Assembly (NCBI GenBank): GCA_944390975.1
Contig: CALXRX010000005.1
Location: 8,182-72,181, forward strand
Origin: an uncultured Clostridia bacterium
Lineage (GTDB): Bacteria > Bacillota > Clostridia > TANB77 > CAG-508
Direction: 5' to 3'
DNA length: 64,000 nucleotides
In this document: in pieces, positions 2,352-44,680 of the stretch
Numbering within the stretch: position 1 is the stretch's first letter
Layout: every line of letters starts with the position of its first letter
The notes under the pieces: generated by a model
Database searches by the model: none
What the model was told of the DNA's origin: nothing
Seen by the model: only the letters and a program-made list of their open reading frames with translations
Made by a program: the position numbers and the translations under genes

Positions 2352-3974
2352 ATGGATATGAGACAACCTATTGGTATAGAATTAGTAAGAAAAGGAGTTA
2401 TTACAGAAGAAGATATTACAAAAGCTTTAGAATATCAAAAAACACATCCTAATAAAAAAATAGGAGATATTTTAAATACATTAGGTGCATGTGATTCGAA
2501 TATATTAATACAAGCTATAGGAGAAATTTTAGGAGAAAAAGCAATACTTTTAGACGAAAGACATTTAAGAATAAATTTAGAAGACTATATTTCTATGGAT
2601 GTTCTTAAACAAAATAAAGCAGTACCTTTTGAAGTAGAAAACGGAAAAATAAAAGTATGTTTTGCTGATACAGCAAATAAAAGAGCAGTAGAAACAATTA
2701 GGTTATTATTACTAAATAAAGGTTTAGTAATGGATAAATATATTACATTTGAAAGTAATATAGAAAAAGTTTTAAAATCATTCGAAGGTGATAGTTCTAA
2801 TGATATTAAGTCAACAACAGATATTACAGGATTAATTGATACTATAATAAAAAAGGCAATGGATAAAAGAGCAAGTGACATACACTTTGAGCCTATGGAA
2901 GATGGTATAAGAATCCGTTATAGAATAGATGGTGAATTATATACAGTAGCAAATTTAGAGGATGATAAACAAGCTCAAATTATAGGAAGATTAAAAGCTA
3001 TTTCAAATATGCATCAAGAAAAACAAGAATCACAAGATGGTAGAATTCTTCTATATCCAGATTATAACATTCGTGTTTCATCACAAAGAAATGTGTATGG
3101 AGAGAAATTTGTTTTAAGATTATTAAAAAAGAATGCAGATTTAAAAGAAATATTTGAATTAGGATTTCCAAAAGATGATGCTTTATTAAATAGAGCATTT
3201 AATAAAAGAAATAGTATAACAATAATGGCAGCTCCTACAGGAGAAGGAAAAACAACTACATTGTACAGTGTTATTGCTTATTTAAATAGACCTGAAATTA
3301 ATATAACAACTATTGAAGATCCTGTTGAAATAAGAATTCCAGGTTTAAACCAAATAGAAATAGATGCAAAAACAAATTTTATAGATTCATTAAGAACAGT
3401 ATTAAGACAAGATCCAGATATTATACTAGTTGGAGAAATTAGAGATAAAGAAACTGCTGAAATTGCCATGCAAGCAGGACAAACAGGACATTATGTATTA
3501 TCTACAATACACACAATAGATAGTGTAGAAGTTATAACAAGACTTAGAAAGATGGGTATTTCAAACTATGATATCGCAAGTACTCTTGCAACATCTGTAT
3601 CACAAAGGTTAGTAAGAAAAATATGTCCACATTGTGCAGTGCAAAGAGATTTTACAAAAGAAGAAATTGACATAATGACACAAATTGGTCAAAAATATAA
3701 TATAGAATTTGATTTTAATGGAAAGAAAACTTATGATGTAGTAGGATGTAAGCATTGCAATAATTCTGGATATTATGATAGAACAGGTATATTTGAAATA
3801 TTAATTATAGATGATAAAATAAGAGAATTGATTACTAATGATGCATCTACTATTAAAATAAAAGAAGAGGCAATTAAAGGAAAATACAAACCATTAGTAA
3901 TAGACGGAATAAATAAAGTTCTAGATGGTACAACGACTTTACAAGAATTGAATAAAAAATTAGTTTTATTTTAG
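2352..3974 (+). CDS. pilB: type IV pilus assembly ATPase PilB (GspE family)
   Basis: N-terminal T2SSE_N-like domain. Walker A APTGEGKTTT, Asp/His boxes, and a C-terminal tetracysteine motif CPHC...CKHC. Start may be the second ATG at 2358. Confidence 0.85.
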   Translation: MDMRQPIGIELVRKGVITEEDITKALEYQKTHPNKKIGDILNTLGACDSNILIQAIGEILGEKAILLDERHLRINLEDYISMDVLKQNKAVPFEVENGKIKVCFADTANKRAVETIRLLLLNKGLVMDKYITFESNIEKVLKSFEGDSSNDIKSTTDITGLIDTIIKKAMDKRASDIHFEPMEDGIRIRYRIDGELYTVANLEDDKQAQIIGRLKAISNMHQEKQESQDGRILLYPDYNIRVSSQRNVYGEKFVLRLLKKNADLKEIFELGFPKDDALLNRAFNKRNSITIMAAPTGEGKTTTLYSVIAYLNRPEINITTIEDPVEIRIPGLNQIEIDAKTNFIDSLRTVLRQDPDIILVGEIRDKETAEIAMQAGQTGHYVLSTIHTIDSVEVITRLRKMGISNYDIASTLATSVSQRLVRKICPHCAVQRDFTKEEIDIMTQIGQKYNIEFDFNGKKTYDVVGCKHCNNSGYYDRTGIFEILIIDDKIRELITNDASTIKIKEEAIKGKYKPLVIDGINKVLDGTTTLQELNKKLVLF

Positions 3975-3994
3975 TAAATAGGAGGGAAATACAA

Positions 3995-5095
3995 ATGATA
4001 CAAGTAGAAAGTATTTTAGATTATGCTATAAAAAAAGATGCATCAGACATTCATTTTATATGTGGAAATAAACCAATGTTAAGAATTATAAGAGACTTAG
4101 TTCCAGTAGAAAATTCTGAAGAATTAGTTCCAGAAGATATGAATGAAATATATGATTATTTAGTAAAAGGTAATATAGATAAAGATAATGTATTTAGACA
4201 AACAAAAAAATTAGATACATTCTTAGAATATGGAGAAAGACGTTTTAGGGTAAATATTTCTTTATCAGGAGATATACCACTTTTTACACTAAGAATTATA
4301 AAAAATGAATTACCAAAATTTGAAGATTTAGGTGTTCCAGATATTGTTAGACGTATGACATTCCAACCACAGGGATTAATGCTAGTTACAGGTAAAACAA
4401 ACTCTGGTAAAACAACAACTTTAAATGCACTTATTAATGAAATTAATGAAACACAAAACAAAAAAATATTAACATTAGAAAGTCCGGTAGAATATAAACA
4501 TCATTCAAAAAAATCAATAATAGTGCAAAAAGAAGTAGGTGTTGGTGGAGACTCATTATGCTATAGTGATGGTGTAAAAAACTCTTTAAGAGAAGACTGC
4601 GATATAGTAGTAGTAGGAGAAATTAGAGATAAAGAAACAATGGAAGCTGCTATTGAAACAGCAGAATCTGGCCATTTAGTAATAGGAACACTTCACACAA
4701 AATCATGTGCAGAAACAATAGATAGAATGATAAATTTCTATGAAATTAGTGATCAACCAACTGTTAAATATTTAATTTCTTCATTATTAAAACTTGTTAT
4801 TTCTCAAAGATTATTAAAAGGAACAGATGGAAAATTAGTATTAGTACCAGAAGTAATGGTTGTTGACAATATTGTTGCAGGACTTATAAGAAAAGATAAA
4901 ATTAGTGTATCAGAAATAGAAGATGCAATACAAAGTAATTTAGAAAAAGGAAGTATAGGACTTATAAATTCAATTGCTACATTATTTGTTGATGAAAGAA
5001 TAACTTTAGAGCAAGCAAAAGCTCAAATAGAGGAAAAAAATATTGAAACTCTAAATAGAACAATTATGCAATTAAGGATTAAAAAGAATAAATAA
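3995..5095 (+). CDS. pilT: twitching-motility retraction ATPase PilT
   Basis: 366 aa. ASDIHF motif, Walker A GKTNSGKTTT and the GHLV..TLHT motif. Collinear with PilT along its length. Confidence 0.85.
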   Translation: MIQVESILDYAIKKDASDIHFICGNKPMLRIIRDLVPVENSEELVPEDMNEIYDYLVKGNIDKDNVFRQTKKLDTFLEYGERRFRVNISLSGDIPLFTLRIIKNELPKFEDLGVPDIVRRMTFQPQGLMLVTGKTNSGKTTTLNALINEINETQNKKILTLESPVEYKHHSKKSIIVQKEVGVGGDSLCYSDGVKNSLREDCDIVVVGEIRDKETMEAAIETAESGHLVIGTLHTKSCAETIDRMINFYEISDQPTVKYLISSLLKLVISQRLLKGTDGKLVLVPEVMVVDNIVAGLIRKDKISVSEIEDAIQSNLEKGSIGLINSIATLFVDERITLEQAKAQIEEKNIETLNRTIMQLRIKKNK

Positions 5096-5123
5096 AAATG
5101 CTAGAAAGGAAGGAGTAAATTAG

Positions 5124-6476
5124 ATGGCGGTATATAGATATAGAGCTTTAACGCCTAATGGTGTAATTGTTAGTAATCGTATAGATGAAAACAATAGAAG
5201 TGCAGTAATAAAGAAACTAAAAAGAAATAATTTAACACCAATAAGCATTACAGAACAAATAGGATTAGCAAAAAAACCTGCTAAATCTAATAAAAGAAAC
5301 GTAAAAGATATTGAAGATATTATAAAGAATGTAAATACTTCTAATATTGTAACAAATAGGGAGAAAAAAAGAGAATCCTATATACAAAAAATTAATAAAG
5401 CTTTAGCTAAAACAGAAAAAATAACAACAAGAGATATAGTTATATTTACGCAAAATTTCTATTTGTTAAAAAAAGCTAATTTTAACAACATACATGCTTT
5501 AAATACAATTATAGAAAGTACAGAAAACTATATTTTTAGAGGAATATTAGAAGACATATTAGCAGGTGTTGAAGCAGGGGAAAATATGTATACTACTATG
5601 GAATATTATTCTAATGTATTCCCATATATTTATATAAATATGATACGTGTTGGAGAACTATCGGGATCTCTTACAAACTCTTTAAAACAAGCAGTTAAGT
5701 ACCTTGACGATAGTACAAATATTAACAAGAAATTAAAAAATATTTTAATACCAAACCTTGTTCAATTTGCTTTATTATTGGTAATGTTAGTAGTAGGTAC
5801 ACTTGTTGCTGTTCCAGCAATTCAAAATGTATTTGATGCTGTAGGAACAAAAGATACTCTACCAGCTTTAACGCTTTGGTTTAAAGATTTCTTAGATAAA
5901 TTAATTATGTATTGGTATGTTCCAACAGCTATTATAGGTGCAATTGTTGTATTTGTTATAATGTATATTAGAACACCAAAAGGAAAATACAACTTTGACT
6001 ATTTTAAATATACTATGCCAATCTTTGGAAAGCTAATTTTTGCTTTAGATTTTTCAAGATTAATGAAAGCTATGCTTCTTAACTTAAATAATGGAATGAG
6101 AATACAAGAGGCATTAGAAGTAAGTAAAAATATATGTAAAAATTATGTTATGCTTTCAATAATTGAAACTTCAATAAATAACATTTTAATTGGACAATCT
6201 TGGATTGAGCCATTTGAAAGATCTGGATTACCATCTTCAATGATAACAGAAATGTTAAAAATAGGTATGAAAACAGATTTATCTGAAATGATGGAAAAAC
6301 TAGTAGAATATATGGAAATAGATATAAATAACATAATAGATAATATTATGAAAGTATTACCACAAGTAGTATATAGTATAGTTGGTATTGTATTAATATT
6401 CTTCGTACTAATTGTATTAGTTCCTGCATTACAATTATACATGGGTAACTTCTTAATTTCAGCAGCAGGATTTTAA
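5124..6476 (+). CDS. pilC: type IV pilus inner-membrane platform protein PilC (GspF family)
   Basis: 450 aa polytopic protein with two GspF-like repeats. Follows pilB and pilT. Confidence 0.8.
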   Translation: MAVYRYRALTPNGVIVSNRIDENNRSAVIKKLKRNNLTPISITEQIGLAKKPAKSNKRNVKDIEDIIKNVNTSNIVTNREKKRESYIQKINKALAKTEKITTRDIVIFTQNFYLLKKANFNNIHALNTIIESTENYIFRGILEDILAGVEAGENMYTTMEYYSNVFPYIYINMIRVGELSGSLTNSLKQAVKYLDDSTNINKKLKNILIPNLVQFALLLVMLVVGTLVAVPAIQNVFDAVGTKDTLPALTLWFKDFLDKLIMYWYVPTAIIGAIVVFVIMYIRTPKGKYNFDYFKYTMPIFGKLIFALDFSRLMKAMLLNLNNGMRIQEALEVSKNICKNYVMLSIIETSINNILIGQSWIEPFERSGLPSSMITEMLKIGMKTDLSEMMEKLVEYMEIDINNIIDNIMKVLPQVVYSIVGIVLIFFVLIVLVPALQLYMGNFLISAAGF

Positions 6477-32836: not shown

Positions 32837-34429
32837 ATGCTAAAACAAGAAAAGGGTTCAATAACATTGTTTGTTTTAATTGCTATGCTATTTTTTACAA
32901 TATTCTTAATTGGAATGTATATATTAAGTACAAATAGTGAAAGTATCCAAATAGAAGAAATGGCAAAAATAAAAGAGATATATGAAGAAGGAGCTAATAA
33001 TGTAGATGATGTATATGCTACAGTAGAGAATAAAGAAATAAAAGAAATAGCACTAGATGGAAGTTGGAGTAGTGCAAATAAAGTAAACAAGCCAAATTTA
33101 GAAAATACAGGATTACAACCAATAGTAATAAATAGTAATGGAACAACATCTACACCAGATACAACAAAAGAAAACTGGTACAGTTATGATGGAGTAGAAA
33201 ATAAATGGGCAAATGCACAAACAGCAGATGGAAGCATGTGGGTATGGATACCAAGATACGCATACAAAATAACATATAATGATGCAAGTGATAAATCACA
33301 AGGAGGAACAATAGATGTAGTATTCTTGCAAGGAACAAGTAACTTAGATAAAAATGGAAAAGATGTAACTCAAGAAAATTATGTAGATGAAAAAGGGAAC
33401 ACAGGAGCATATATAGTACATCCAGCATTCGAAGATGGAAGTAGCAATGGATACCCAAATGGAGAATGGAATAAAAAGATAGAAGGAATATGGGTAGCAA
33501 AATTTGAAGCAGGATATCAAGATGCAGATAAAGCAGTAAACTCAAATGTAGGATATAGTGTAACAGATGGTTATGATGGAACTACAGCAGGAGATATAAA
33601 AAATAATTACTATGAAGAAATACAACAAGGAACAAAAATAAAATTTCCAACATTTATAGCAAACAAACCAAGTATAAATTATATTGGGGTAAATGACAGC
33701 TATGATTTATGTAAGGATTTAACAAGTACAAATGCCCCATACAAATTAAATGGAAATAAAGTAGATAGTCATTTAACAAAAAATAGTGAATGGGGAGCAG
33801 TAGCATATTTAACACACAGTAAATATGGAAGAAACGGACAAGAAGTAACAATAAATAATGTATCTGTAAATGGAGAAAATACAGTATATGCAGTAACAGG
33901 GTATGCAGGAGAAAGTGTTAGTGCAAATCCAGTAACAACGAATTTGACAGCTATAAAAAATAACGAAGTAGCAGGAAGTTGGACAACTGAACAAGGACAA
34001 AAAGCAAGTAGTACAGGAAACATATATGGAATATATGACTTAAGTGGAGGACTATGGGAATGGACAGCAGGATATATAGCGCCAGAAACAGGAAACTATC
34101 AAACATATGGAGGAAGCTTAAAAGGAGAAAGTAATCAGTATAAAAGTAAATATGCAGGTGTATCTGACAAAGATTTAGACAATTACAATGAAACAGCAAA
34201 TGCTAGTAGAGTTGGAGAAGCTATATGGGAAACTTCAGCAAGTGGAACATATCCAGGGAAAAGTGCATGGAATAGCGATTACTCATATTTTGTTTCTCTT
34301 TCAGGAGTATTTACTGAACGTGGAGGTGGATGGGGTAGTACAACTATTGCCGGTGTTTTTGCATTCACTCGCAATGAGGGTTTTGGTAATTATAATGTCG
34401 GTTTCCGTCCAGTGTTAATAGTTGAGTAG
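32837..34429 (+). CDS. paralog 1: pilin-like N-terminal anchor plus FGE-sulfatase (C-type-lectin fold) domain protein with hypervariable C-terminus
   Basis: N-terminus MLKQEKG-SITLFVLIAMLFF. SUMF1/FGE-family motifs HLTKNSEWGAVAYL, NIYGIYDLSGGLWEWTAGY, RGGGW and GFRPVLIV. The last ~120 nt are A-poor and GC-rich. Confidence 0.7.
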   Translation: MLKQEKGSITLFVLIAMLFFTIFLIGMYILSTNSESIQIEEMAKIKEIYEEGANNVDDVYATVENKEIKEIALDGSWSSANKVNKPNLENTGLQPIVINSNGTTSTPDTTKENWYSYDGVENKWANAQTADGSMWVWIPRYAYKITYNDASDKSQGGTIDVVFLQGTSNLDKNGKDVTQENYVDEKGNTGAYIVHPAFEDGSSNGYPNGEWNKKIEGIWVAKFEAGYQDADKAVNSNVGYSVTDGYDGTTAGDIKNNYYEEIQQGTKIKFPTFIANKPSINYIGVNDSYDLCKDLTSTNAPYKLNGNKVDSHLTKNSEWGAVAYLTHSKYGRNGQEVTINNVSVNGENTVYAVTGYAGESVSANPVTTNLTAIKNNEVAGSWTTEQGQKASSTGNIYGIYDLSGGLWEWTAGYIAPETGNYQTYGGSLKGESNQYKSKYAGVSDKDLDNYNETANASRVGEAIWETSASGTYPGKSAWNSDYSYFVSLSGVFTERGGGWGSTTIAGVFAFTRNEGFGNYNVGFRPVLIVE

Positions 34430-34455
34430 CACTTCAAAAATATATAGATTATATT

Positions 34456-34509
34456 AAAACTAGTAAAAAAGTCTCAGATTAAAATCAGACTTTTTGTACT
34501 AGTTTTTTC
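34456..34509 (+). terminator. long-stem Rho-independent terminator (3' flank type a)
   Basis: aaaactagtaaaaaagtctcagatt pairs with aatcagactttttgtactagtttt, followed by a T-run. The same flank follows paralog 3. Confidence 0.6.
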
Positions 34510-34870
34510 TATGGAAAAAATAAATAAAAAGCTTGACAAAGTAATATAAGTAAATATAAAATTGTATCATAAAACGGGAAAAAGAGTTTAACAGAATTTA
34601 AACTTAAATTTATCAAAAAACTTGTTCAAGCTAATTTACAAAGATATTCTAAAATAATTTTATGGCACCCTTCCATTTAAAATGAACACTTTCCATAAAA
34701 TTATTTAAGAATATCTAAAGCAAATTACTTTCAATGCGTTTTTTTCAAATTTGAAGTTTTAAATTCTGTTAAATAAAATTTCTAGTAGGCAAGCAAATGA
34801 AGCTAAAATGTATAAAAAAAAGTTAAAAGTAAAAAATAAAATCACAAAAGAGAATGAGGAGGAAAGGTCA

Positions 34871-35909
34871 AGTGATAAGGAAAAAGGAGAAAAGCAGTAA
34901 AAATAATTTAAAATCAAAAAACGAGATAGGAATCACATTAATAGCTTTAATAATAACAATAATCATCTTGTTAATACTTGCAGGAGTGACAATAAACTTA
35001 ACATTAGGAGAAAATGGGATATTTAGAACAGCAGAGATGGCAGGAAAGAACTATATGGAGGCACAAGAAAGAGAGTTAGCAGGACTAGCAGACTTTGAAA
35101 AAGCAATAAATAATATAATAGGAGGAACAGGAAGTAGCAGTGACACAGATACACCTGTTATAAATTATGACACATTAAAAAGTGTAGCAGATCCAGGAGA
35201 TTATGTAAAATATGATACAGGGATAACATCAGTTGGAAATAATGGAATAGTAACATTTAGGGTATTGTATAATGATGATACATATGGATTGCAAATAATA
35301 TCAGATAAAAATCTAGAGGAAATAAATTTTGGAATAACTAAATCTAATGATTTGGCCACATGGGAATTAGTAATGAATGATTATAACAATGCAATAACTA
35401 CATTAAATGAAAAAGCGGAGTATTATATAACAAATAGTCCATATGCACTAGATGGAAGATGTGTGGGAAGTGTAGCAACAATAGGAGCAGATGGAAAATT
35501 TAATGAAAAGAATACAGAAGTAGAAGGAACATATAATATACCAGATTCATGGACATTACCAAGTGGATGGAGTAGTAGAGATACAGGATGTAAAAAAGTG
35601 ACTGATGAAAATTATATAACAGACCAAATGACTATGGAAGCATTAGGACTATGGAGAACAGATGAAAACTATTGGCTAGCATCCCACCATGTAAATTTGG
35701 ATACAGACGATTTGACTTTTTTTGTGAATGGTGTTGATAGCAGTGGGAACGTTTTCTTAGCTCACATGTGTGGTGCCTATCCAAGTGGTAGCACAGTTAC
35801 TGGCTCTTATAAATTTGGGCTTCGTCCTTGTATATCTTTAAAATTTGATGTCAAGGTAATAGCAGGAGATGGAAAAACAGAAGCTACTGCATATGAGTTA
35901 GGAATATAA
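34871..35909 (+). CDS. pilin-like N-terminus protein with globular C-terminal domain (putative modular minor pilin)
   Basis: Likely GTG start at 34871 after a GAGGAGG RBS; the ORF-track ATG is 34854. EIG-ITLIALIITIIILLILAGVTINLTLGENGIF is near-identical to the pilin of 262..489. The C-terminus ...GSYKFGLRPCISL is NNY-codon rich. Confidence 0.5.
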
Positions 35910-35917
35910 GGCTTGAT

Positions 35918-36085
35918 ACTCTAAAATATATATTTCTCAAATTTTTATACAAAAACCTTGGTGTCGCAACCTACAAAGTAAGAAAACAAGACGTAGGTTG
36001 CTCCAAGTCGCACTCGCTTCAAAAGAAGCGAGTTTGGTCGCTTACGCGGTTTTTATAAAAATTTTCTAAATATATATTTTAGAGT
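35918..36085. other. about 168-bp element: ~38-bp AT-rich inverted-repeat arms enclosing a 90-nt GC-rich multi-hairpin core
   Basis: Arms are actctaaaatatatattt...aaaaacc and ggttttt...aaatatatattttagagt. The core has hairpins gcaacctac/gtaggttgc and actcgcttc/gaagcgagt, and a thrice-repeated gtcgc. Confidence 0.5.
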
Positions 36086-36123
36086 GAGGGGAGTAAAAAG
36101 AGTATGTAAAATCTTTAAAAAGC

Positions 36124-36175
36124 TAGTCAAAAGTTTTGTAAGTAAAAGCAGAGTAAACTTGACTAGTTTTTTTGC
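36124..36175 (+). terminator. Rho-independent terminator
   Basis: gctagtcaaaagtt...aaacttgactagt hairpin followed by T7. Confidence 0.55.
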
Positions 36176-36276
36176 GTTATTAGATTATCTATGAAGTAAT
36201 TTATAGGAGTATACGTTGTTTAAGAAAAAAGCAAAATATTATGCAAACAAATGATAAATAAAAAGTAGAAAATTAC

Positions 36277-36305
36277 TTGAAAGAGAGATAAAAAAGAGAT
36301 ATATA
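36277..36305 (+). promoter_or_regulatory. putative sigma-A promoter (TTGAAA, 17 nt spacer, TATATA) in the conserved ~150-bp module upstream of paralogs 2, 3 and 4
   Basis: The same module is present upstream of the ATGs at 39095 and 43021. Confidence 0.4.
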
Positions 36306-36350
36306 AGTACTTGAAAATGAAAATTAATATAATAAAATACGGAGGAAAAA

Positions 36351-37955
36351 ATGTTAAAACAAGAGAGAGGCTCAATAACATTGTTTGTATTAATAGCAAT
36401 GCTATTTTTTACAATATATCTAATTGGAATGTATATATTAAGCACAAATAGTGAAAGTAGCCAAATAGAAGAAATGGCAAAAATAAAAGAAATCTATGAA
36501 GAAGGAGTAAACAATATAGATGATGTATATACTACATTAGAAAAAAGAGAAATGGAAAATAATGAGAAAGATATTGCACTAGATGGAAGTTGGAGTAGCA
36601 CAAATAAAGTAAACAAGCCAAATTTAGAAAATACAGGATTACAAGCAATAGTAATAAATGCTGATGGAACAACATCTACACCAGATAGTAAAAAAGAAAA
36701 TTGGTACAGTTATGATGGAGTAGAAAATAAGTGGGCAAACGCACAAACAGTAGATGGAAGTATGTGGGTATGGATACCAAGATATGCATATAAAATAACA
36801 TACAATGATGGAAGTGATAAATCACAAGGAGGAACAATAGATGTAGTCTTTTTGCAAGGAACAAGTAACTTAGATAAAGATGGAAAAGATGTAACCCAAG
36901 CAAGTTATTTAGATGAAAAAGGACAAACAGGAGCATATATAGTACATCCTGCATTTGAAGATGGAAGTAGCACAGGGTATGCAAATGGTGAGTGGAGAAA
37001 AAAGATAGAAGGAATATGGGTAGCAAAATTTGAAGCAGGATATCAAGATGCAGATAAAGCAGTAAATTCTAATGTGGGATACACTACTATATATAGTTAT
37101 GAAATAGATGGAACAGAAGCAGATAGAACAACATATTATTATGGAGAAAGGGTAGTAGGAACAAAGATAAAATATCCAACATTTACAGCAAATAAACCAA
37201 GTATAAGCTATATAGGAATAAGTGATAGTTATGATTTATGTAGAGATTTAACAAGTATGAATGCTCCATATAAATTAAATGGAAACAAAGTAGATAGTCA
37301 CTTAACAAAAAATAGTGAATGGGGAGCAGTAGCATATTTAACACACAGTAAATATGGAAGAGGAGGACAAGAAGTAACAATCAATAATATAACAGTAAAT
37401 GGAGAAAATACAGCATATGCGGTAACAGGATATGCAGGAGAAAGCGTTAGTGCAAGCCAACTAGTAACAAATTTAACAGCAATAAATAATAATCAAGTAG
37501 AAGGAAGTTGGACAACTGCACAAGGACAAAAAGCAAGTACTACAGGAAATATATATGGAATATATGATTTAAGCGGAGGACTATGGGAATTCACAGCAGG
37601 ATATATAGCACCAGAAACAGGGAACTATCAAACATATGGAGGAAGTCTAAAAGGAGAAAGTAACGAATACAAAAGTAAATATGCTGGGGTATCAGAAACA
37701 GCTGAAACAAACTACAACGAAATAGTCAATAAAGGAAGAATTGGAGAGGCAATATGGGAGACATCAGATAGTGGAAGCACTGTTAATGGTGCATGGAATA
37801 GCGACTATAGTGCTTTTGTACGTTCTATAGCACCATTTACAGTCCGTGGAAGTAATTGGAGTTTCGATTCTAAAGCCGGACTCTTTGCGTTCGACCGTAC
37901 TTATGGTTTTTGCCGTTTCCAGGTTGGTTTCCGTCCAGTGCTTATAATTGAGTAG
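36351..37955 (+). CDS. paralog 2: pilin-like N-terminus plus FGE-sulfatase/CLec-fold protein with hypervariable C-terminus
   Basis: About 85% identical to paralog 1 over the first ~480 aa. The first ~45 codons are identical. C-terminus ...VRGSNWSFDSKAGLFAFDRTYGFCRFQVGFRPVLIIE. Confidence 0.7.
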   Translation: MLKQERGSITLFVLIAMLFFTIYLIGMYILSTNSESSQIEEMAKIKEIYEEGVNNIDDVYTTLEKREMENNEKDIALDGSWSSTNKVNKPNLENTGLQAIVINADGTTSTPDSKKENWYSYDGVENKWANAQTVDGSMWVWIPRYAYKITYNDGSDKSQGGTIDVVFLQGTSNLDKDGKDVTQASYLDEKGQTGAYIVHPAFEDGSSTGYANGEWRKKIEGIWVAKFEAGYQDADKAVNSNVGYTTIYSYEIDGTEADRTTYYYGERVVGTKIKYPTFTANKPSISYIGISDSYDLCRDLTSMNAPYKLNGNKVDSHLTKNSEWGAVAYLTHSKYGRGGQEVTINNITVNGENTAYAVTGYAGESVSASQLVTNLTAINNNQVEGSWTTAQGQKASTTGNIYGIYDLSGGLWEFTAGYIAPETGNYQTYGGSLKGESNEYKSKYAGVSETAETNYNEIVNKGRIGEAIWETSDSGSTVNGAWNSDYSAFVRSIAPFTVRGSNWSFDSKAGLFAFDRTYGFCRFQVGFRPVLIIE

Positions 37956-37969
37956 AGAAATTTTATATA

Positions 37970-38008
37970 AATGGTAATATTGAGAAGAAGTGATATTACC
38001 ATTTTTTG
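37970..38008 (+). terminator. Rho-independent terminator (3' flank type b)
   Basis: aatggtaatat / atattaccatt stem followed by T6. The same flank follows paralog 4. Confidence 0.6.
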
Positions 38009-38159
38009 GTAAAATAAATTCATAATAGTGTAGTTTGGCAATGTTGACTTCACTTTACACTTCAATATTATATAGGAATAATAATTAATATATAAATAAT
38101 ATAAAATGAATATATCTCAATATATTAGATATATTATTTATAATAAATGTTTTATAGTG

Positions 38160-38188
38160 TTGACGTACGTATAAGCGTATGCTATAAT
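38160..38188 (+). promoter_or_regulatory. promoter of the toxin-antitoxin operon (TTGACG, 17 nt spacer, TATAAT) with cgtata direct repeats in the spacer
   Basis: Consensus hexamers. The repeats cgtata and gcgtat lie inside the spacer and are a likely antitoxin operator. Confidence 0.5.
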
Positions 38189-38210
38189 ATATAGAAGGAG
38201 TGAATAAGAA

Positions 38211-38459
38211 ATGACTAATACTAATATAACTAATTTTAGAAAGAATATATATAACCTATTAGAAAAGACAATCAAATACAATGAGCCAATTAATATTTCA
38301 ACGAAAAATGGCAATGCTGTTATTATATCCGAAGAAGATTATAACAGCATAATAGAAACATTGTATATATGCTCAATACCTAAATTAAAAGAAGATATAC
38401 AAAAAGGATTAAAGGAAAATATTGAGAACTGTGTACCAGAAGATGAGGTGGAATGGTAA
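38211..38459 (+). CDS. yefM: Phd/YefM-family antitoxin
   Basis: 82 aa, with the FRKNIYNLLEK...PINISTKNGNAVIISEEDYNSIIETLY pattern of YefM. Confidence 0.75.
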   Translation: MTNTNITNFRKNIYNLLEKTIKYNEPINISTKNGNAVIISEEDYNSIIETLYICSIPKLKEDIQKGLKENIENCVPEDEVEW

Positions 38460-38462
38460 ACA

Positions 38463-38729
38463 ATGTATAATATAGTATATATAAAACAAGTAATAAAAGA
38501 TATACCAAAACTAAAAGCTATTGGATTAAGTAATAAAGCTAAAAATTTAATAGATATTATAAAGTCAAATCCGTATCAAAATCCACCACCTTATGAAAAA
38601 CTTATTGGAGATTTACAAGGTGCATATTCAAGAAGAATTAACATACAGCATAGATTAGTGTATCAAGTTTTAGAAGAAAAAAAAACAATAAAAATATTAA
38701 GTATATGGTCACATTATGAAAATGTATAA
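38463..38729 (+). CDS. yoeB: YoeB/Txe-family toxin (ribosome-dependent mRNA interferase)
   Basis: 88 aa. Begins 4 nt after the yefM stop. Conserved ...RRINIQHRLVYQV...IKILSIWSHYE. Confidence 0.75.
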   Translation: MYNIVYIKQVIKDIPKLKAIGLSNKAKNLIDIIKSNPYQNPPPYEKLIGDLQGAYSRRINIQHRLVYQVLEEKKTIKILSIWSHYENV

Positions 38730-39094
38730 AGATAAATATACTTTTATTGTTTATCATAATATAAAATTATAGAAAAAATGAAAAGTTAATGGACAACCAA
38801 TAGTTACAAATATAAAAGAGTTAAAAAAGTTTGTGCAATATAAGGAATTAGAACAAACAAAAATGGCTATTGGAAGATATAATAGATGTTACAATAAACT
38901 TTGCGATAAAAAAGCGTTGAATTTAGAAATAAGTTCAAAGCTTTTTTATATTCTAAATTTGATTTTTAAATAAGAGATAATATTATGCAAACAAGTGATA
39001 AATAAAAATTAGAAAATTACTTGAAAGAGAGAGAAAAAAGAGATATATAAGTACTTGAAAATAAAAATTAATATAACAAAGTACGGAGGAAAAA

Positions 39095-40696
39095 ATGTTA
39101 AAACAAGAGAAAGGATCAATAACATTGTTTGTATTAATAGCAATGCTATTTTTTACAATATATTTAATAGGAATGTATATATTAAGCACAAATAGTGAAA
39201 GTAGCCAAATAGAAGAAATGGCAAAAATAAAAGAAATCTATGAAGAAGGAGTAAACAATATAGAAGATATATATGCCACATTAGAAAAAAGAGAAATGGA
39301 AAATAATGAAAAAGAAATAGCACTAGATGGAAGTTGGAGTAGCACAAATAAAGTAAACAAGCCAAATTTAGAAAACACAGGATTGCAACCAGTTATAATA
39401 AATGCAGATGGGACAACTGCTAAACCAGATAGTAAAACAGAAAATTGGTATAGCTATGATGGAGTAGAAAATAAGTGGGCAAACGCACAAACAGCAGATG
39501 GAAGTATATGGGTGTGGATACCAAGATACGCATATAAAATAACATACAACGACTCAAGTGATAAATCACAAGGAGGAACAATAGACGTAGTATTTTTACA
39601 AGGAACAACTAACTTAGATAAAAATGGAAAAGATGTAACACAAGCAAGTTATGTAGATGAAAAAGGAGTAACAGGAGCATATATAGTACACCCAGCATTT
39701 GAAGATGGAAGCAGCACAGGGTATGCAAATGGAGAGTGGAGAAAAAAGATAGAAGGAATATGGGTAGCAAAATTTGAGGCAGGATACCAAGATGTAGATA
39801 AAGCAGTAGATTCAAATGTGGGATATAGTACAATATATAGTTGGGAAATAAACAAAACATCAGCAGATAGAACAACATACTATTATGGAAAAAGAACAGT
39901 AGGAACAAAAATAAAATATCCAACATTTACAGCAAACAAACCAAGTATAAATTATATAGGAATAAGCGATAGTTATGATTTATGTATGGATTTAACAAGT
40001 ACAAATGCCCCATATGGATTAAATGCAGCCAAAGTAGATAGTCATTTAACAAAAAATAGTGAATGGGGAGCAGTAGCATATTTAACACACAGTAAATATG
40101 GAAGAAACGGAAAGGAAATAACAATAAACAATATAACAGTAGATGGAGACAGTACAGCTTATGCAGTAACAGGATATGGAGGAGAAAGTGTTAGTGCAAG
40201 CCAACTAGTAACAAATTTAACAGCAATAAATAATAACCAAGTAGCAGGAAGTTGGACAAGTTCACAGGGACAAAAAGCAAGCAGTACAGGAAATGTATAT
40301 GGAATATATGACTTGAGCGGAGGATTATGGGAATTCACAGCAGGATATATAGTACTAGATTCAGGCAACTATCAAACATATGGAGGAAGTCTAAAAGGAG
40401 AAAGTAATCAATATAAAAGTAAATATGTAGGTATAGCTGAAACATATGAAATAAATTATTCTAATGAAGGAAATGTAAATAGAAAAGGAGAGGCAATATG
40501 GGAGACATCAGATAGTGGTGAGGGAACAACTTCATGGAATAACGACCACTCCTTTTTTGTGTATTCTTCGGAACCTTTCCTTGCTCGTGGAGGTAGATGG
40601 AGTTACACGTCTGATGCTGGTGTGTTTGGATTCAGTTGCAGTTACGGTTACGGCAATTGCAGTATTGGTTTCCGTTCAGTGCTTATAGTTGAGTAG
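39095..40696 (+). CDS. paralog 3: pilin-like N-terminus plus FGE-sulfatase/CLec-fold protein with hypervariable C-terminus
   Basis: Same architecture as paralogs 1 and 2. C-terminus ...ARGGRWSYTSDAGVFGFSCSYGYGNCSIGFRSVLIVE. Confidence 0.7.
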   Translation: MLKQEKGSITLFVLIAMLFFTIYLIGMYILSTNSESSQIEEMAKIKEIYEEGVNNIEDIYATLEKREMENNEKEIALDGSWSSTNKVNKPNLENTGLQPVIINADGTTAKPDSKTENWYSYDGVENKWANAQTADGSIWVWIPRYAYKITYNDSSDKSQGGTIDVVFLQGTTNLDKNGKDVTQASYVDEKGVTGAYIVHPAFEDGSSTGYANGEWRKKIEGIWVAKFEAGYQDVDKAVDSNVGYSTIYSWEINKTSADRTTYYYGKRTVGTKIKYPTFTANKPSINYIGISDSYDLCMDLTSTNAPYGLNAAKVDSHLTKNSEWGAVAYLTHSKYGRNGKEITINNITVDGDSTAYAVTGYGGESVSASQLVTNLTAINNNQVAGSWTSSQGQKASSTGNVYGIYDLSGGLWEFTAGYIVLDSGNYQTYGGSLKGESNQYKSKYVGIAETYEINYSNEGNVNRKGEAIWETSDSGEGTTSWNNDHSFFVYSSEPFLARGGRWSYTSDAGVFGFSCSYGYGNCSIGFRSVLIVE

Positions 40697-40725
40697 AAGT
40701 TTAAAAAATATGTAGATTGTATAAT

Positions 40726-40778
40726 AAAACTAGTAAAAAAGTTTCAAAGTTAAATCAGACTTTTGTACTAGTTTTTTC
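40726..40778 (+). terminator. Rho-independent terminator (3' flank type a, copy 2)
   Basis: Near-identical to the element at 34456..34509. Confidence 0.55.
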
Positions 40779-40925
40779 TGTGGTAAAAATAAATAAAATA
40801 CTTGACAAGTAATATAAGTAAATATAAAATTGTATCATAAAATGGAAAGAGGTTGTTTAACAGAATTTAAACTTAAATTTATAAAAAAGTAATTCAATCT
40901 AATTTATTAAAATATTAAAAAAGCA

Positions 40926-40965
40926 AAGGAATAACATTAATAGTTCTAATAATAACAATATTGTT
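40926..40965 (+). pseudogene. remnant of a second copy of the 34871..35909 pilin-like gene (about 230-bp deletion removed RBS, start and leader)
   Basis: 40780-40925 matches 34510-34650. Then ggaataacattaatagttctaataataacaatat matches codons ~20-32 of the intact gene. It diverges afterwards. Confidence 0.45.
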
Positions 40966-41288
40966 CTCTTATACGAAATGATAAAATTCAGCAATAACAA
41001 AGGTTTCCTCCTACAAACAATTTAGTAATTTATAAATTTTCACATATTTAGAAGATGAATTGTAATAAATAAATACAAGTTCATCTTTTTTGAATTTATA
41101 AAAATAGTTAAAAATGAAAAATTGATAGATATAAAATTCAAAGGTAACAAATTCGATACCTTTGGAATGTAAAAATGTCTTTTTTTAGATTTTTAATGAA
41201 AAAAATAAAAACAGATGATATAATGTCAATTAATAGAAAAGATGAATTGTGCAGACGGCATTTGCACAATTAGAAAGAAGGTACATAT

Positions 41289-42179
41289 ATGAGTATGGAT
41301 ATGATAAAAACAGAGATATATGTTGAAAAAAATAAAGTCAGTGTAATTAGAATAAATAATAAGGAATACATATCATTAACAGATTTAGCAAGATATGCAA
41401 ATCCAGAAGAACCCAAAATACCAGTACAAGCTTGGATGAGAAATAAAGATGTAATTTCATATTTGGGATTATGGGAAAAGCTTAATAATGAAAATTTCAA
41501 AGGTCACGAATTCGAGACCTTTGAGAATGAAGCAGGTAAACATAGCTTTTATATGTCACCGCAAAAATGGATAAAGGAAACAAATGCTATTGGTATTATA
41601 TCAAAGTCTGGAAACAATGGAGGGACATTTGCACATAGTGATATAGCATTTGAATTTGCAAGTTGGTTATCTCCAGAATTTAAGTTATATTTAATTCAAG
41701 AATTTGAAAGGCTAAAAAAGAATGAATCATATCAATATAAAATTGAATGGCAAGCTAATAGAGTATTATCAAAGGTAAATTATTTAGTACATACTGATGC
41801 CGTAAAAATGAACATAGTTCCAGTTTTAACAGAAGAACAAAAGAGATATGTTTATGCTGAAGAAGCAGATGTATTGAATGTTGCATTATTTGGAATGACA
41901 GCTAAACAGTGGAGAACACAAAATCCAGATTTAGTAGAAAAAGGTAATATGAGAGACTATACTGGTTTACTTCATTTGGTTATTTTGAGTAATTTAGAGA
42001 ATACAAATGCAGAATTAATAAATGCAGGAGTACCACAAAGTGAAAGATTAATAAAATTAAATGATTCAGCAAGAAGGCAAATGAGAGTATTAGAAAACAA
42101 CAAAGGAATAAAAGAATTAGAAAATTTACAAGATGAAATAAATGAAATCAATATTTTGAAGATAAAAGATAAAAATTAG
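41289..42179 (+). CDS. KilA-N domain protein (phage/plasmid-associated DNA-binding domain)
   Basis: 296 aa. The N-terminal 110 aa carry a KilA-N/APSES-like pattern (ISLTDLARYAN...WMRNKDVISYLGLWE). The C-terminus is coiled-coil. Confidence 0.55.
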   Translation: MSMDMIKTEIYVEKNKVSVIRINNKEYISLTDLARYANPEEPKIPVQAWMRNKDVISYLGLWEKLNNENFKGHEFETFENEAGKHSFYMSPQKWIKETNAIGIISKSGNNGGTFAHSDIAFEFASWLSPEFKLYLIQEFERLKKNESYQYKIEWQANRVLSKVNYLVHTDAVKMNIVPVLTEEQKRYVYAEEADVLNVALFGMTAKQWRTQNPDLVEKGNMRDYTGLLHLVILSNLENTNAELINAGVPQSERLIKLNDSARRQMRVLENNKGIKELENLQDEINEINILKIKDKN

Positions 42180-42625
42180 AACTTTTGAATCGTCCAGACG
42201 TCTGAACAATTTAAAAATGAAAATCGTTTTAGATTAAATTTCTAAAGCGATTTTTATGGAAATTTTTTATCTACATTTTGAAGATATAAAGTTATATAAA
42301 AAACAAATAAAAATGGCTAGAAATTAAAAATAAGTCGAATAAAGAGAATAATGAAAACAAAGAATAGCAAAATTATATGCAAATGAAATACTCTAAGATA
42401 AGACACATGATTTGCATATAAGAAACCAGCTACTAGAGTAGATAAACTACTTGGGTAGCTGATTTTTTAGTTAAAGTTGAGAATAGCAATTTTAACTAAA
42501 ACATAAAAAATATAAAAATATTTTTTATGCAAAGGGGTGTGGGGAAAAATAAATTTTTCCCTGCCACATTAACACTTTTTAGTGATAGCGTTAAAAAGTG
42601 TTGTAGTGTGTTTACTGCACATTTG

Positions 42626-42871
42626 GAATGGACAGCAGGATATATAGAACTAGAAACAGGGAATTATCAAACATATGGAGGAAATCTAAAAAGGGAAAGT
42701 AACGAATACAAAAGTAAATATGCAGGTGTATCAGATAAAGATATAGACAATTACAACGAAATAGCAAATACAACTAGAAAAGGAGATGCGATATGGGAGA
42801 CTTCAAATAGCGGAAGTGGAAGTAATTCATGGAATGGAGGATACTCATGTTTCATGCATACTACTTGTTAA
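42626..42871 (+). pseudogene. internal fragment (~82 codons) of an FGE-domain paralog, truncated at both ends
   Basis: Homology begins at gaatggacagcaggatatata (EWTAGYI...) and ends inside the variable C-terminal region. The 3' end is fused directly to the conserved upstream module of paralog 4. Confidence 0.6.
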
Positions 42872-43020
42872 AAATTTTCAAGGTAAAACTTAAGAAAAAA
42901 GCAAAATATTATGCAAACAAGTGATAAATAAAAAACAACAAATTACTTGAAAGAGAAATAAAAAAGAGATATATAAGTACTTGAAAATAAAAATTAATAT
43001 AACAAAGTACGGAGGAAAAA

Positions 43021-44628
43021 ATGTTAAAACAAGAGAAAGGATCAATAACATTGTTTGTATTAATAGCAATGCTATTTTTTACAATATATCTAATAGGAAT
43101 GTATATATTAAGTACGAATAGCGAAAGTAGTCAAATAGAAGAAATGGCAAAAATAAAAGAAATATATGAAGAAGGAGTAAACAATATAGAAGATGTATAT
43201 GCCACATTAGAAAAAAGAGAAATAGAAAATAATGAAAAAGAAATAGCACTAGATGGAAGTTGGAGTAGCACAAATAAAGTAAATAAACCAAATTTAGAAA
43301 ATACAGGATTACAAGCAATAGTAATAAATGCTGATGGAACAACATCTACACCAGATAGTAAAAAAGAAAATTGGTATAGCTATGACGGAGTAGAAAATAA
43401 ATGGGCAAATGCCAAAACAGCAGATGGAAGCATGTGGGTATGGATACCAAGATATGCCTATAAAATAACATATAATGATGCAAGTGATAAATCACAAGGA
43501 GGAACAATAGATGTAGTATTCTTGCAAGGAACAAGTAATTTAGATAAAGATGGAAAAGATGTAACCCAAGAAAATTATATAGATGAAAAGGGAGCAACAG
43601 GAGCATATATAGTGCATCCAGCATTTGAAGATGGAAGTAGTACAGGATACCCAAATGGAGAATGGAGAAAAAAGATAGAAGGAATATGGGTAGCAAAATT
43701 TGAAGCAGGATACCAAGATGTAGATAAAGCAGTAGACTCAAATATAGGATATAGTACAATATATAGTTGGGAAATATCAGGAACGCCAACAGCAGATAGA
43801 ACAACATACTATTATGGAGAAAGAGAAATAGGAACAAAAATAAAATACCCAACATTTGTAGCAAACAAACCAAGTATAAATTATATTGGGGCAAGTGATA
43901 GTTATGACTTATGTAAGGATTTAACAAGCACAAATGCACCATATGGATTAAATGCAAACAAAGTAGATAGCCATTTAACAAAAAATAGTGAATGGGGAGC
44001 AGTAGCGTACCTAGCACATAGTAAATATGGAAGAAATGGACAAGAAGTAACAATAAACAATATAAATGTTAATGGCGACACTACAGCATATGCAGTAACA
44101 GGATATGGAGGAGAAAGTGCTAGTGTTGGAGGGGTAATAACAAATTTAACAGCAATAAAAAATAACCAAGTAGAAGGAAGTTGGACAACATCACAAGGGC
44201 AGAAAGCAAGTACTACAGGAAACATATATGGAATATATGACTTAAGTGGAGGACTGTGGGAATGGACAGCAGGATATATAGCACCAGAAACAGGAAACTA
44301 TCAAACCTATGGAGGAAGCTTAAAAGGAGAAAGTAATCAGTATAAAAGTAAATATGCAGGAGTATCTGCAACAGATGAAACAAATTACAAGGAAACTGCC
44401 AATATAAATAGAATTGGAGAAGCAATATGGGAAACATCAACAAGTGGAGCATGGCCAAGTACAACTGCATGGAATAGCGACTATACCTGTTTTGTAAGTA
44501 CAAGTCCATTCATTGTTCGTGGTGGAACTAGAATCGACAATTATGCTGCTGGTATGTTTTCGTTCGCTCGTGGTACCGGTTACAACGTTTTCGATGTTGG
44601 TTTCCGTTCAGTGCTTATAGTTGAATAG
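43021..44628 (+). CDS. paralog 4: pilin-like N-terminus plus FGE-sulfatase/CLec-fold protein with hypervariable C-terminus
   Basis: Same architecture. C-terminus ...VRGGTRIDNYAAGMFSFARGTGYNVFDVGFRSVLIVE. Confidence 0.7.
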   Translation: MLKQEKGSITLFVLIAMLFFTIYLIGMYILSTNSESSQIEEMAKIKEIYEEGVNNIEDVYATLEKREIENNEKEIALDGSWSSTNKVNKPNLENTGLQAIVINADGTTSTPDSKKENWYSYDGVENKWANAKTADGSMWVWIPRYAYKITYNDASDKSQGGTIDVVFLQGTSNLDKDGKDVTQENYIDEKGATGAYIVHPAFEDGSSTGYPNGEWRKKIEGIWVAKFEAGYQDVDKAVDSNIGYSTIYSWEISGTPTADRTTYYYGEREIGTKIKYPTFVANKPSINYIGASDSYDLCKDLTSTNAPYGLNANKVDSHLTKNSEWGAVAYLAHSKYGRNGQEVTINNINVNGDTTAYAVTGYGGESASVGGVITNLTAIKNNQVEGSWTTSQGQKASTTGNIYGIYDLSGGLWEWTAGYIAPETGNYQTYGGSLKGESNQYKSKYAGVSATDETNYKETANINRIGEAIWETSTSGAWPSTTAWNSDYTCFVSTSPFIVRGGTRIDNYAAGMFSFARGTGYNVFDVGFRSVLIVE

Positions 44629-44642
44629 AGAAATTTTATATA

Positions 44643-44680
44643 AATGGTAATATTGGGAAGAACTGGTATTACCATTTTTT
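44643..44680 (+). terminator. Rho-independent terminator (3' flank type b, copy 2)
   Basis: aatggtaatat / tattaccatt stem followed by T6. Confidence 0.6.

Follow-up and report, generated by a model that had tools for sequence, protein, structure and literature searches.

Organization of the locus

The window analyzed here, a 64,000-nt stretch of DNA, carries four paralogous genes on the + strand, whose ORFs encode proteins of 530–535 aa (Table 1). In an alignment, these proteins are 76–81% identical to paralog 1, and their paralogy is far beyond chance. The ORFs lie where an earlier note on this DNA had placed them, and the array forms a 13-kb island flanked by ftsZ and spoIIGA. Upstream of it is a complete type IV pilus (T4P) operon, whose pilC gene is separated from the array by 26 kb that hold housekeeping genes. 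Pfam bears out the PilD, PilB, PilT and PilC genes that the note had recognized in this operon; directly upstream of the window are a PilM-N fusion, a PilO-like gene and a gene for a 162-aa protein.

Every copy in the array has its own terminator-like hairpin and a conserved upstream region of ~115 nt (repeats D3–D5). The array would have grown by tandem duplication, with gene conversion still homogenizing it in some places. Several other elements are interspersed with the four copies. The gene for the 351-aa protein starts at 34854 rather than at the previously proposed 34871; its product has no Pfam or PHROG matches, and a single-sequence AlphaFold2 model was unusable (pLDDT 38). The fragment of a fifth paralog covers residues ~413–495, the truncation falling before the variable region (VR). 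The KilA-N regulator gene marks a mobile element. The fifth-copy fragment, the remnant of a second 351-aa-type gene, the Phd/YoeB pair and the KilA-N gene had not been described in the note.

Table 1. Features of the T4P operon and the paralog array, in window coordinates.
Feature	Position	Strand	Basis or remark
75-aa helix-only pilin without Glu5	262..489	+	Lone class B module, first pilin gene of T4P operon; conserved family, synteny
PilD, two 140-aa minor-pilin-like proteins, PilB, PilT, PilC	588..6476	+	Pfam
DUF285/PARCEL-repeat protein	23709..25544	+	Class B pilin-type N terminus; another candidate modular pilin
Paralog 1, 530 aa	32837..34429	+	Class A helix module at N terminus, FGE/C-type-lectin-fold head, VR at C terminus; ORF, alignment
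VR of paralog 1, 43 codons	34283..34411	+	Run without invariant A
351-aa protein	34854..35909	+	Class B pilin-type N-terminal module, head of unrecognized fold
Paralog 2, 534 aa	36351..37955	+	ORF, alignment
VR of paralog 2	37809..37937	+	A-free invariant run, codon use
Phd/YefM antitoxin and YoeB toxin pair	38211..38729	+	Between copies; Pfam E=6.8e-13, 5.4e-11
Paralog 3, 533 aa	39095..40696	+	ORF, alignment
VR of paralog 3	40550..40678	+	A-free invariant run, codon use
Decayed remnant of second 351-aa-type gene	40807..40967	+	Upstream region and N terminus (..KSKGITLIVLIITILF..stop); repeats D10, D11; six-frame motif scan
KilA-N/phage-type transcriptional regulator	41289..42179	+	Pfam 1.1e-19; PHROG 3.4e-49
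Fifth-paralog pseudogene fragment, 114 aa	42527..42871	+	61% identity in alignment; repeat D1
Paralog 4, 535 aa	43021..44628	+	Copy used for structure model
VR of paralog 4	44482..44610	+	A-free invariant run, codon use
Terminator-like hairpin 3' of paralog 4	44642..44677	+	

A lectin-fold head with a hypervariable C terminus

The motifs quoted in support of an FGE-sulfatase/C-type-lectin head (EWGAVAYL, GIYDLSGGLWEWTAGY, RGGxW and GFRxVLIV) are all present. The assignment holds at the level of the fold, since an AlphaFold2 model of paralog 4 (pLDDT 91.5) strongly matches FGE/C-type-lectin-fold proteins, but not at the level of the Pfam FGE-sulfatase family (PF03781), which falls below threshold in all four proteins: two paralogs reach 18.2 and 19.8 bits where the cutoff is 23.3, and the Pfam search gave no match in the other two. 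Among 60 relatives, 24 match PF03781 at E≤0.01. The proposal that the head is a binding module rather than an enzyme is upheld, because a conserved cysteine pair is absent from a 60-sequence family alignment, where the sole Cys-majority column reaches 70%. That the paralogs are membrane-anchored enzymes of the FGE/SUMF1 or EgtB type, active in formylglycine generation or as sulfoxide synthases, is extremely unlikely. This cysteine pattern and the Pfam scores under the gathering cutoff both speak against it, the top structural matches are non-enzymatic variable proteins, and a hypervariable C terminus cannot fit a conserved active site.

The VR of each paralog lies at the C terminus of the protein, and the VR-bearing domain has the C-type-lectin/FGE-like fold expected of a variable protein mutated by a diversity-generating retroelement (DGR). 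Alignment of the paralogs reveals a run of 130 columns of which 48 are invariant, all of them C, G or T, and 81 are variable. Outside this run, A makes up 48.75% of invariant columns and the next longest A-free gap spans 18 columns; the probability of the A-free invariant run arising by chance is ~1e-14. The pattern holds when the alignment is extended by two further paralogs from the same species. Base composition shifts accordingly, with 16–20% A within the VRs of the four paralogs versus 45–46% elsewhere (for paralog 1, A 0.20 and GC 0.41 in the VR, versus 0.46 and 0.32 in the rest of the gene). Codon usage shifts as well: 13 of 15 Arg codons within the VRs are CGT/CGC, all 26 outside are AGA/AGG, and Gly is encoded mostly by GGT within and mostly by GGA outside. 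That these are DGR-type variable proteins whose variable region lies at the C terminus is the central feature of this locus, and it had no place in the earlier note.

C-terminal hypervariability could also have arisen without a retroelement, if a binding loop came under diversifying selection once the genes had been duplicated. The paralogs differ over their whole length, including ~20% divergence outside the VR, and part of the VR divergence is therefore ordinary; third codon positions are variable too. In addition, no template repeat (TR) or reverse transcriptase (RT) lies within reach, and the VRs are unchanged between assemblies. However, selection on amino acids leaves unexplained how 130 columns could lack an invariant A in a genome of 27% GC, and it fails equally to account for a conserved switch in Arg and Gly codons from AGA/GGA to CGT/GGT that is confined to the VR. 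The homologous segment of relatives, moreover, has canonical TR/VR pairs. We consider selection without a retroelement improbable.

Relatives with DGR cassettes and the static state of the array

Further evidence for DGR-type variable proteins came from relatives at 35–45% identity, which adjoin complete DGR cassettes (TR, RT and bAvd) with adenine-specific mismatches. Two such loci, L119 and L146, share the order target gene with pilin-type N terminus, TR, RT (RVT_1), bAvd (E=1e-22) and MutS_I protein, and 14/15 and 16/17 of their respective mismatches fall at TR adenines. The corresponding counts are 19/20, 10/10 and 20/21 for the phage loci L093–L095, and 19/19 and 15/18 for L060 and L024, where the TR lies directly 3' of the gene. 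Variation limited to TR-adenine positions is thus seen directly in these seven relatives, and a five-gene array in a different genome shows the same pattern. The family is large, with more than 7,700 proteins scored in a single search, and is typically present in several copies per genome, with tandem arrays common. Among ~100 family genes in reference genomes, a TR was found within 10 kb of two and an RT within 10 kb of none. With a TR near only two of the ~100, most copies are orphans, and their relation to a DGR is putative.

The array in the window is likewise devoid of a cassette. A search of both strands of the window found no TR-like copy, and Pfam and tblastn searches found no RT. When the flanks beyond the window were read from loci L085 and L186, no TR, RT or Avd was detected from about −7 to +70 kb in window coordinates. 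Two other assemblies (L100 and L101) are ~99.9% identical to this one over 21.6 and 7.2 kb. The comparison yielded 11 SNPs over 21.6 kb (99.95% identity), none in any VR, and 7 of the 11 form one gene-conversion tract. The VRs are thus identical across three assemblies, with no sign of ongoing diversification, which together with the lack of a nearby TR or RT indicates that the array is an orphan or remote repertoire that is currently static. With the search of the window and flanks yielding no cognate TR, RT or Avd, we infer DGR action on the four genes from its footprint. We put at roughly 0.75 the probability that the four paralogs are DGR-type variable surface ligand-binding proteins belonging to a very large family of uncultured gut Clostridia.

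Two N-terminal carrier modules

The 75-aa pilin of the T4P operon has a mature start of I-T-L-V-A, which lacks Glu5, and scores 17.6 bits against N_methyl, under the threshold. The pilins of this operon are all non-canonical in lacking Glu5, so the Glu5 criterion may not apply in this lineage. As had been noticed before, a G-ITL-hydrophobic N terminus without Glu5 is common to the 75-aa, 351-aa and DUF285 proteins. Family homologs at 53 of 84 genome loci and 33 of 80 metagenome loci bear a ~70-aa N-terminal module (class B) with 50–60% identity to the 75-aa operon pilin, and 14 of 15 class B modules match Pfam N_methyl (PF07963). Since a copy of the operon's pilin serves as their N-terminal carrier, these relatives are modular pilins. 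Across the 164 family loci, no PilB, PilC, PilD or PilT match was found within 10 kb. The idea that binding modules have been grafted onto pilin helices is borne out for the family, but not for the four paralogs.

The N termini of the four paralogs, previously called identical, are nearly so, differing by K/R at residue 6 and F/Y at residue 23. They belong to a 65-aa carrier module (class A) that is as widespread as class B and distinct from the pilin module; it occurs in 609 representative clusters, always N-terminally, and among the heads it carries are ConA-like lectin, CBM_2 and ALK/LTK glycine-rich domains. The leader MLKQEKG followed by SITLFVLIAMLFFTIYLIGMYIL provides what is expected of a pilin leader, namely a short hydrophilic stretch ending in Gly and then ~21 hydrophobic residues. 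Gly7 does not vary among 15 class A modules, and the mature start would be S-I-T-L-F, without Glu5. Known minor pilins without Glu5 (GspK, PilX/PilK and ComGG) have a leader ending in Gly and a hydrophobic helix, with a proposed tip site for bulky subunits; class A would resemble them in its Gly-ending leader and Glu5-less hydrophobic helix.

These features bear on a model, built on the earlier note, in which the four paralogs are genuine modular type IV pilins: PilD would cut after Gly7, the helix would enter a pilus built by PilB/PilC/PilT, and the lectin-fold head would act as a tip adhesin. The class A leader is similar to MLKGQKG, the leader of the operon pilin, and both have the G-(S)-ITL motif. 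Gly7, Ser8 and Thr10 show little or no variation across class A, and hhalign aligns class A with class B at 82.6% probability. Class B modules carry heads 60–67% identical to that of paralog 4 (P0007, P0013), and same-species paralogs with heads 75–76% identical (P0006, P0010) also bear class B. Class A is, like modular pilins, a general carrier of lectin and CBM heads, the operon pilins themselves lack Glu5, and the paralog 4 model has a long N-terminal helix. Against these points, PF07963 matches neither the four paralogs nor, at a cutoff relaxed to E≤5, any of the 15 class A modules, and class A N termini match no NCBIfam prepilin model and no solved pilin, only generic signal-anchor families. 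Searches of class A with PilX_N and ComGG also gave no match, Tad (PF13400) gave a weak match in 2 of 15 members (E=0.22), and there are no stand-alone class A genes in T4P operons.

The pilin claim for the four paralogs is accordingly doubtful, and class A as a divergent tip pseudopilin is a minority possibility. Class A is judged most likely to be a stalked type II membrane anchor, at somewhat better than even odds. A 40-residue stalk may not clear the Gram-positive wall, a consideration that favors pilus display over simple membrane anchoring. Modular-pilin status of the paralogs is compatible with their heads being DGR targets.

Comparison with known systems

The DGR variable proteins TaqVP (PDB 5VF4), TvpA (2Y3C) and Mtd (1YU0) have the same C-type-lectin fold as the array heads. 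The array differs from them in having neither a cognate TR nor an RT or Avd within ~77 kb, in comprising four tandem copies and a fragment, in its larger head (~460 aa, with insertions), and in its N-terminal carrier helix module, which is missing from those structures. In overall architecture, the array proteins are like the membrane-bound cellular DGR targets of Roux et al. 2021 (PMC8144416), a paper in which pilins have no occurrence, with the difference that the N-terminal segment here is a conserved, swappable 65–75-aa module, one version of which is the T4P operon pilin.

A binding module is likewise mounted on a pilin-type helix in the modular pilins of Streptococcus sanguinis (PilB with vWA, PilC with a ConA-like lectin). 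Those pilins carry Glu5, whereas the carrier here is helix-only, lacks Glu5 and, on the four paralogs, is unrecognizable as a pilin. In the S. sanguinis proteins, the class III signal peptide is canonical and the pilin module is complete, including its beta-sheet (PMC8179133). The pairing of pilin and FGE-sulfatase had already been catalogued among InterPro modular pilins as IPR012902-IPR005532 (8 proteins, Dataset S1), as had pilin and DUF285 (IPR012902-IPR005046) (Raynaud et al. 2021, PMC8179133). A literature search returned no described DGR link for modular type IV pilins; that link would be new, the architecture itself being already known. In Bacteroides type V pili (bioRxiv 10.1101/2024.11.15.621889), a gut-bacterial DGR diversifies a pilus-displayed lectin-fold adhesin, and the pilin-fused variable heads of gut Clostridia parallel these adhesins. 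The Bacteroides system differs in phylum and carrier, being a type V pilus assembled by chaperone-free strand exchange in a diderm, and type IV pili, Firmicutes and Clostridia are unmentioned in that report.

A model for the array and its implications

Each array protein would have three parts: a basic leader (MLKQEKG), 22-residue hydrophobic helix and conserved helical stalk (..IKEIYE..DVY..); a ~460-aa, predicted extracellular head with the FGE-sulfatase/C-type-lectin fold; and the 43-codon C-terminal VR, where a scaffold (R-G-G, A-G-x-F-x-F, G-F-R) alternates with hypervariable positions that form a putative binding surface. The N-terminal helix, a class B pilin copy in most relatives and class A in the four paralogs, would export and anchor the head. 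The VRs probably derive from a template repeat through adenine-directed mutagenic retrohoming, a process suggested by the footprint here and seen directly in relatives. Because the segment holds no TR, RT or Avd and the VRs are identical in three assemblies, the array now appears to be a fixed standing set of four putative binding specificities, every gene having a separate promoter region and terminator. Further diversification would depend on trans action by a DGR at another site in the genome.

To our knowledge, no natural system other than DGRs carries out targeted hypermutation of proteins in bacteria, and we know of roles for few of their cellular targets. Most copies in this family lack an adjacent cassette, and surveys that start from the reverse transcriptase miss many DGR-type variable regions. 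Swappable carriers on DGR-type heads, one of them the conserved pilin of a T4P operon, offer a concrete route by which variable proteins may reach the cell exterior, and the class B fusions would tie a hypermutation system to type IV pili. For T4P biology, an ultrashort Glu5-less major pilin with genome-wide modular fusions to DUF285, lectin-fold and unrecognized heads is of interest in itself. A more speculative proposal, which we hold only tentatively, is that a Glu5-less, helix-only T4P built on the 75-aa pilin displays DGR-hypermutated lectin-fold adhesins in gut Clostridia, with class B forming the shaft, class A acting as a tip pseudopilin, and a single DGR serving the orphan arrays in trans. 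If true, this would be the first link between a DGR and a type IV filament, and would give a monoderm a programmable adhesin repertoire.

An array of variable genes

The four paralogs constitute an orphan tandem array of variable surface proteins of the type targeted by diversity-generating retroelements (DGRs), in which a reverse transcriptase (RT) and the accessory protein bAvd accompany a template repeat (TR) and a variable region (VR). The earlier note had described four long open reading frames with a shared N-terminus and a set of SUMF1/FGE-family motifs; all of these were recovered, the N-termini being near-identical, and the encoded proteins share 76-81% identity. Each gene has its own terminator-like hairpin and a conserved upstream region of ~115 nt. 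Reading the paralogs as FGE enzymes was rejected, as the conserved cysteine pair is absent from an alignment of 60 family sequences. A PHROG search added nothing for the four proteins. Tandem arrays are common in the family.

The variable character of the genes is concentrated in a run of 130 alignment columns right before the last five codons. In a DNA alignment of the four genes, 48 columns of this run are invariant, all of them C, G or T, and 81 are variable. Outside the VR, A occupies 48.75% of 1,120 invariant columns, and the second-longest A-free gap spans 18 columns (P~1e-14). Codon choice and composition shift accordingly in the 43 codons of the VR: arginine is encoded by AGA or AGG at 26 of 26 positions outside the VR and by CGT or CGC at 13 of 15 inside, glycine mainly by GGA outside and mainly by GGT inside, while A makes up 45-46% of the bases outside and 16-20% inside, and GC content rises from 32-33% to 41-45%. 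The A-free pattern holds after two further paralogs from the same species are added, and the same VR pattern is also seen in another genome, in an array of five genes. Across the family, the protein scaffold F..RGG........G.F.F....G......GFR..L is interleaved with positions that accept at least 10 residue types. DGRs mutagenize adenines, and the scaffold codons of their templates avoid A. The VR pattern is the footprint that mutagenesis of adenines by a DGR should leave; the analysis demonstrates both this mutational footprint and the fold of the heads.

Two other assemblies contain the same array, with 99.9% identity over 21.6 and 7.2 kb and 0 differences in any VR, and comparison of the three assemblies gave no sign of current mutagenesis in the four VRs. 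A gene-conversion tract from paralog 3 to paralog 2 accounts for 7 of the 11 SNPs between assemblies. The only clustered differences replace the N-terminal region of paralog 2 with paralog 3 sequence (NNIDDVYTT to NNIEDIYAT), which indicates that the copies are still exchanging sequence by gene conversion.

Coordinates of the array, its neighbors and related loci in other genomes and metagenomes
Feature	Sequence	Coordinates	Strand
T4P operon (75-aa pilin, PilD, two 140-aa proteins, PilB, PilT, PilC)	window	262-6476	
Patatin-like phospholipase and DUF285/PARCEL-repeat genes	window	22753-25544	
ftsZ (end)	window	32453	
Paralog 1: start; VR	window	32837; 34283-34411	+
351-aa protein	window	34854-35909	
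Paralog 2: start; VR	window	36351; 37809-37937	+
Clustered differences between assemblies	window	36521-36575; 43284-43287	
Paralog 3: start; VR	window	39095; 40550-40678	+
Decayed second 351-aa-type copy	window	40807-40967	
Paralog 4: start; VR	window	43021; 44482-44610	+
245-aa ORF	window	44915-45652	-
spoIIGA (start)	window	46076	
Stand-alone class A gene after cca	L097; L184	10001-10231; 9001-9216	
Full-length class A variable gene after cca	L001	10001-11569	
Same-species class B paralogs (also L088, L089)	L087; L091	3965-5633; 4946-6608	
T4P operon on other contigs	L085; L182	4149-7298; 6133-15463	
Cellular DGR (RT, bAvd and MutS domain I genes)	L119; L146	9585-11871; 2974-5313	RT, bAvd and MutS genes opposite to TR and target
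TR 3' of family gene	L060; L024	11508-11642; 1258-1409	
Five tandem family genes	L016	2000-11548	

Template repeats and reverse transcriptases

A TR matching these VRs is expected to be ~130 nt long, to follow the scaffold CGTGG..G.....G............T...GC.GG..T.TTT...TTC....G...T...GGTT.......TT......T.GGTTTCCGT and to carry adenines at the variable columns. Scanning both strands of the window with the scaffold pattern returned the four VRs and nothing else, and an RT was detected neither by Pfam searches of all large ORFs in the window nor by tblastn with two DGR RTs. The search was extended on contigs from this strain or a closely related one, reached through PilD and a DHH gene, to ~7 kb upstream and 6 kb past the 3' end (to ~70 kb in window coordinates), and these flanks lack a DGR. 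The pattern had zero matches in viral and metagenome collections, from which the species appears to be absent. No TR was found downstream of the two additional same-species paralogs, and an RT motif regex had 0 matches in 84 genome loci. Among ~100 family genes in reference genomes, two have a TR within 10 kb and none has an RT. Given these counts and the searches of the window and its flanks, most members of the family, these four among them, are variable-region genes of the orphan or remote kind.

Complete cassettes occur in relatives. At two human-gut metagenome loci, L119 and L146, a family member 38-42% identical to the paralogs is followed by a TR, with 14 of 15 and 16 of 17 TR/VR mismatches, respectively, at TR adenines; past the TR lie an RT (RVT_1), bAvd (E=1e-22) and a MutS_I protein, the last being a small MutS domain I protein. 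An adjoining RT is also present at L137 and L177. Phage contigs L093-L095 carry more distant homologs within canonical cassettes, where 19/20, 10/10 and 20/21 mismatches are at TR adenines. At L060 and L024, a canonical TR lies ~220 nt 3' of the gene, and mismatches at adenines number 19/19 and 15/18; the L060 TR translates as N-R-G-G-N-Y-N-N-G-S-N-A-G-A-F-A-F-N-N-S-N-G-N-A-N-N-N-N-G-F-R. At both loci an RT is absent from the 0.4-0.9 kb after the TR and from the whole fetched locus. The L024 TR is an imperfect donor for other VRs of its genome, with 18/32 mismatches at A, so the idea that one TR serves many VRs in trans is unsupported. In L016, from another Clostridia MAG, two of the five tandem genes have identical VRs and one gene is frameshifted.

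N-terminal modules

One head type is joined in the family to three alternative N-terminal modules, of which class B is the commonest. Over ~70 residues, class B (KG/ITLVALVITIIVLLILAG..GENGIF..) shares 50-60% identity with the 75-aa ORF at the start of the T4P operon. Pfam N_methyl matches 14 of 15 such modules, and a PDB search with the class B profile returned type IV pilins only. The 75-aa protein belongs to a conserved stand-alone family of >100 clusters of 73-80 aa. On this combined evidence, class B fusions, among them the 351-aa and DUF285 proteins of the window, are modular pilins, and pilus display of the class B relatives is supported. The operon layout is unchanged in a species whose pilin is 63% identical, and a same-species contig places a PilM-N fusion, a PilO-like gene and a 162-aa gene just 5' of the operon. 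The 75-aa pilin is apparently helix-only and lacks Glu5 (G/ITLVA..); the 140-aa minor pilins begin G/VTTTD and G/VTTTS.

The four paralogs carry the 65-aa class A module, and the pilin-like N-terminus that the earlier note assigned to them was not supported: class A fails every pilin test, with N_methyl matches in 0 of 15 modules, no NCBIfam match and no PDB pilin match. Its matches are to generic signal-anchor families only. Alignment of class A with class B by hhalign scored 82.6%, which is weak evidence, two hydrophobic helices being compared. PilB, PilC, PilD and PilT were found within 10 kb of 0 family loci. Export and anchoring would proceed through the N-terminal helix, and display of the four paralogs on pili is possible but less likely than not.

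Class A is nevertheless more than a random anchor. The module was found in 609 representative clusters, where it invariably spans residues ~4-66, either as a stand-alone protein of ~70 aa or joined to heads, among them ConA-like lectin, CBM_2 and ALK/LTK glycine-rich domains. The stand-alone ORFs may be deletion remnants, but their position after cca, outside T4P operons, is conserved in several species. Immediately 3' of the CCA-adding enzyme gene, some species encode a stand-alone class A protein of 71-76 aa and another species a full-length class A variable protein; this slot is a conserved site of the module.

Two further same-species paralogs with the class B module lie at a groEL-mutL locus and 5' of spoIIAA. 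A shared +1 frameshift (..DNMLSGRKYRRRGR* and then GTG-GGNTGEEEDEKEIALDG..), kept in at least three samples, interrupts both; they could be inherited pseudogenes, undergo programmed frameshifting or express module and head separately.

Genomic setting

The host chromosome in the window is that of a low-GC (~27%), sporulating Clostridium-like organism. Downstream of the T4P operon, housekeeping genes run from RNase J to FtsA and FtsZ. The ftsZ and spoIIGA genes are adjacent as a rule; here, the array occupies a ~13-kb segment between them. The segment looks like a variable island: a Phd/YoeB toxin-antitoxin pair, a phage-type KilA-N regulator and gene remains lie there too, the remains being a 114-aa piece of a fifth copy and a decayed second 351-aa-type gene. 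As the decayed gene lies 3' of paralog 3, the ancestral repeat unit may have comprised a variable protein and a 351-aa-type gene. The intact 351-aa protein combines class B with a head that has no detectable family (single-sequence AF2 pLDDT 38); to our eye, there is a loose resemblance between its C-terminus (..YWLASHH..GLRPCISL) and lectin folds of the DUF1566 type. The last gene of the island before spoIIGA is a 245-aa ORF with hydrophobic segments, which matches nothing in Pfam or PHROG and for which tblastn recovered no homolog from the first 84 family loci. Elsewhere in the window, a patatin-like phospholipase gene lies immediately 5' of the DUF285/PARCEL-repeat gene with its class B pilin-type N-terminus.

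Relation to known systems

Pilin plus FGE-sulfatase and pilin plus DUF285 architectures were already catalogued by Raynaud et al. (PMC8179133), N-terminal transmembrane segments are already known from cellular DGR targets (PMC8144416), and a GspG-type pilin domain appears in one survey as one of the scarce domains that hold VRs (PMC11661182). A literature search returned no paper tying DGRs to type IV prepilins and none on the N-terminal motif; the closest precedent is the DGR-diversified type V pilus adhesins of Bacteroides (bioRxiv 10.1101/2024.11.15.621889). A major pilin as short as the 75-aa protein, and lacking Glu5, would be unusual among bacterial T4P. TR/VR pairs with no RT alongside, as at L060 and L024, would be missed by surveys that take the RT as their starting point.
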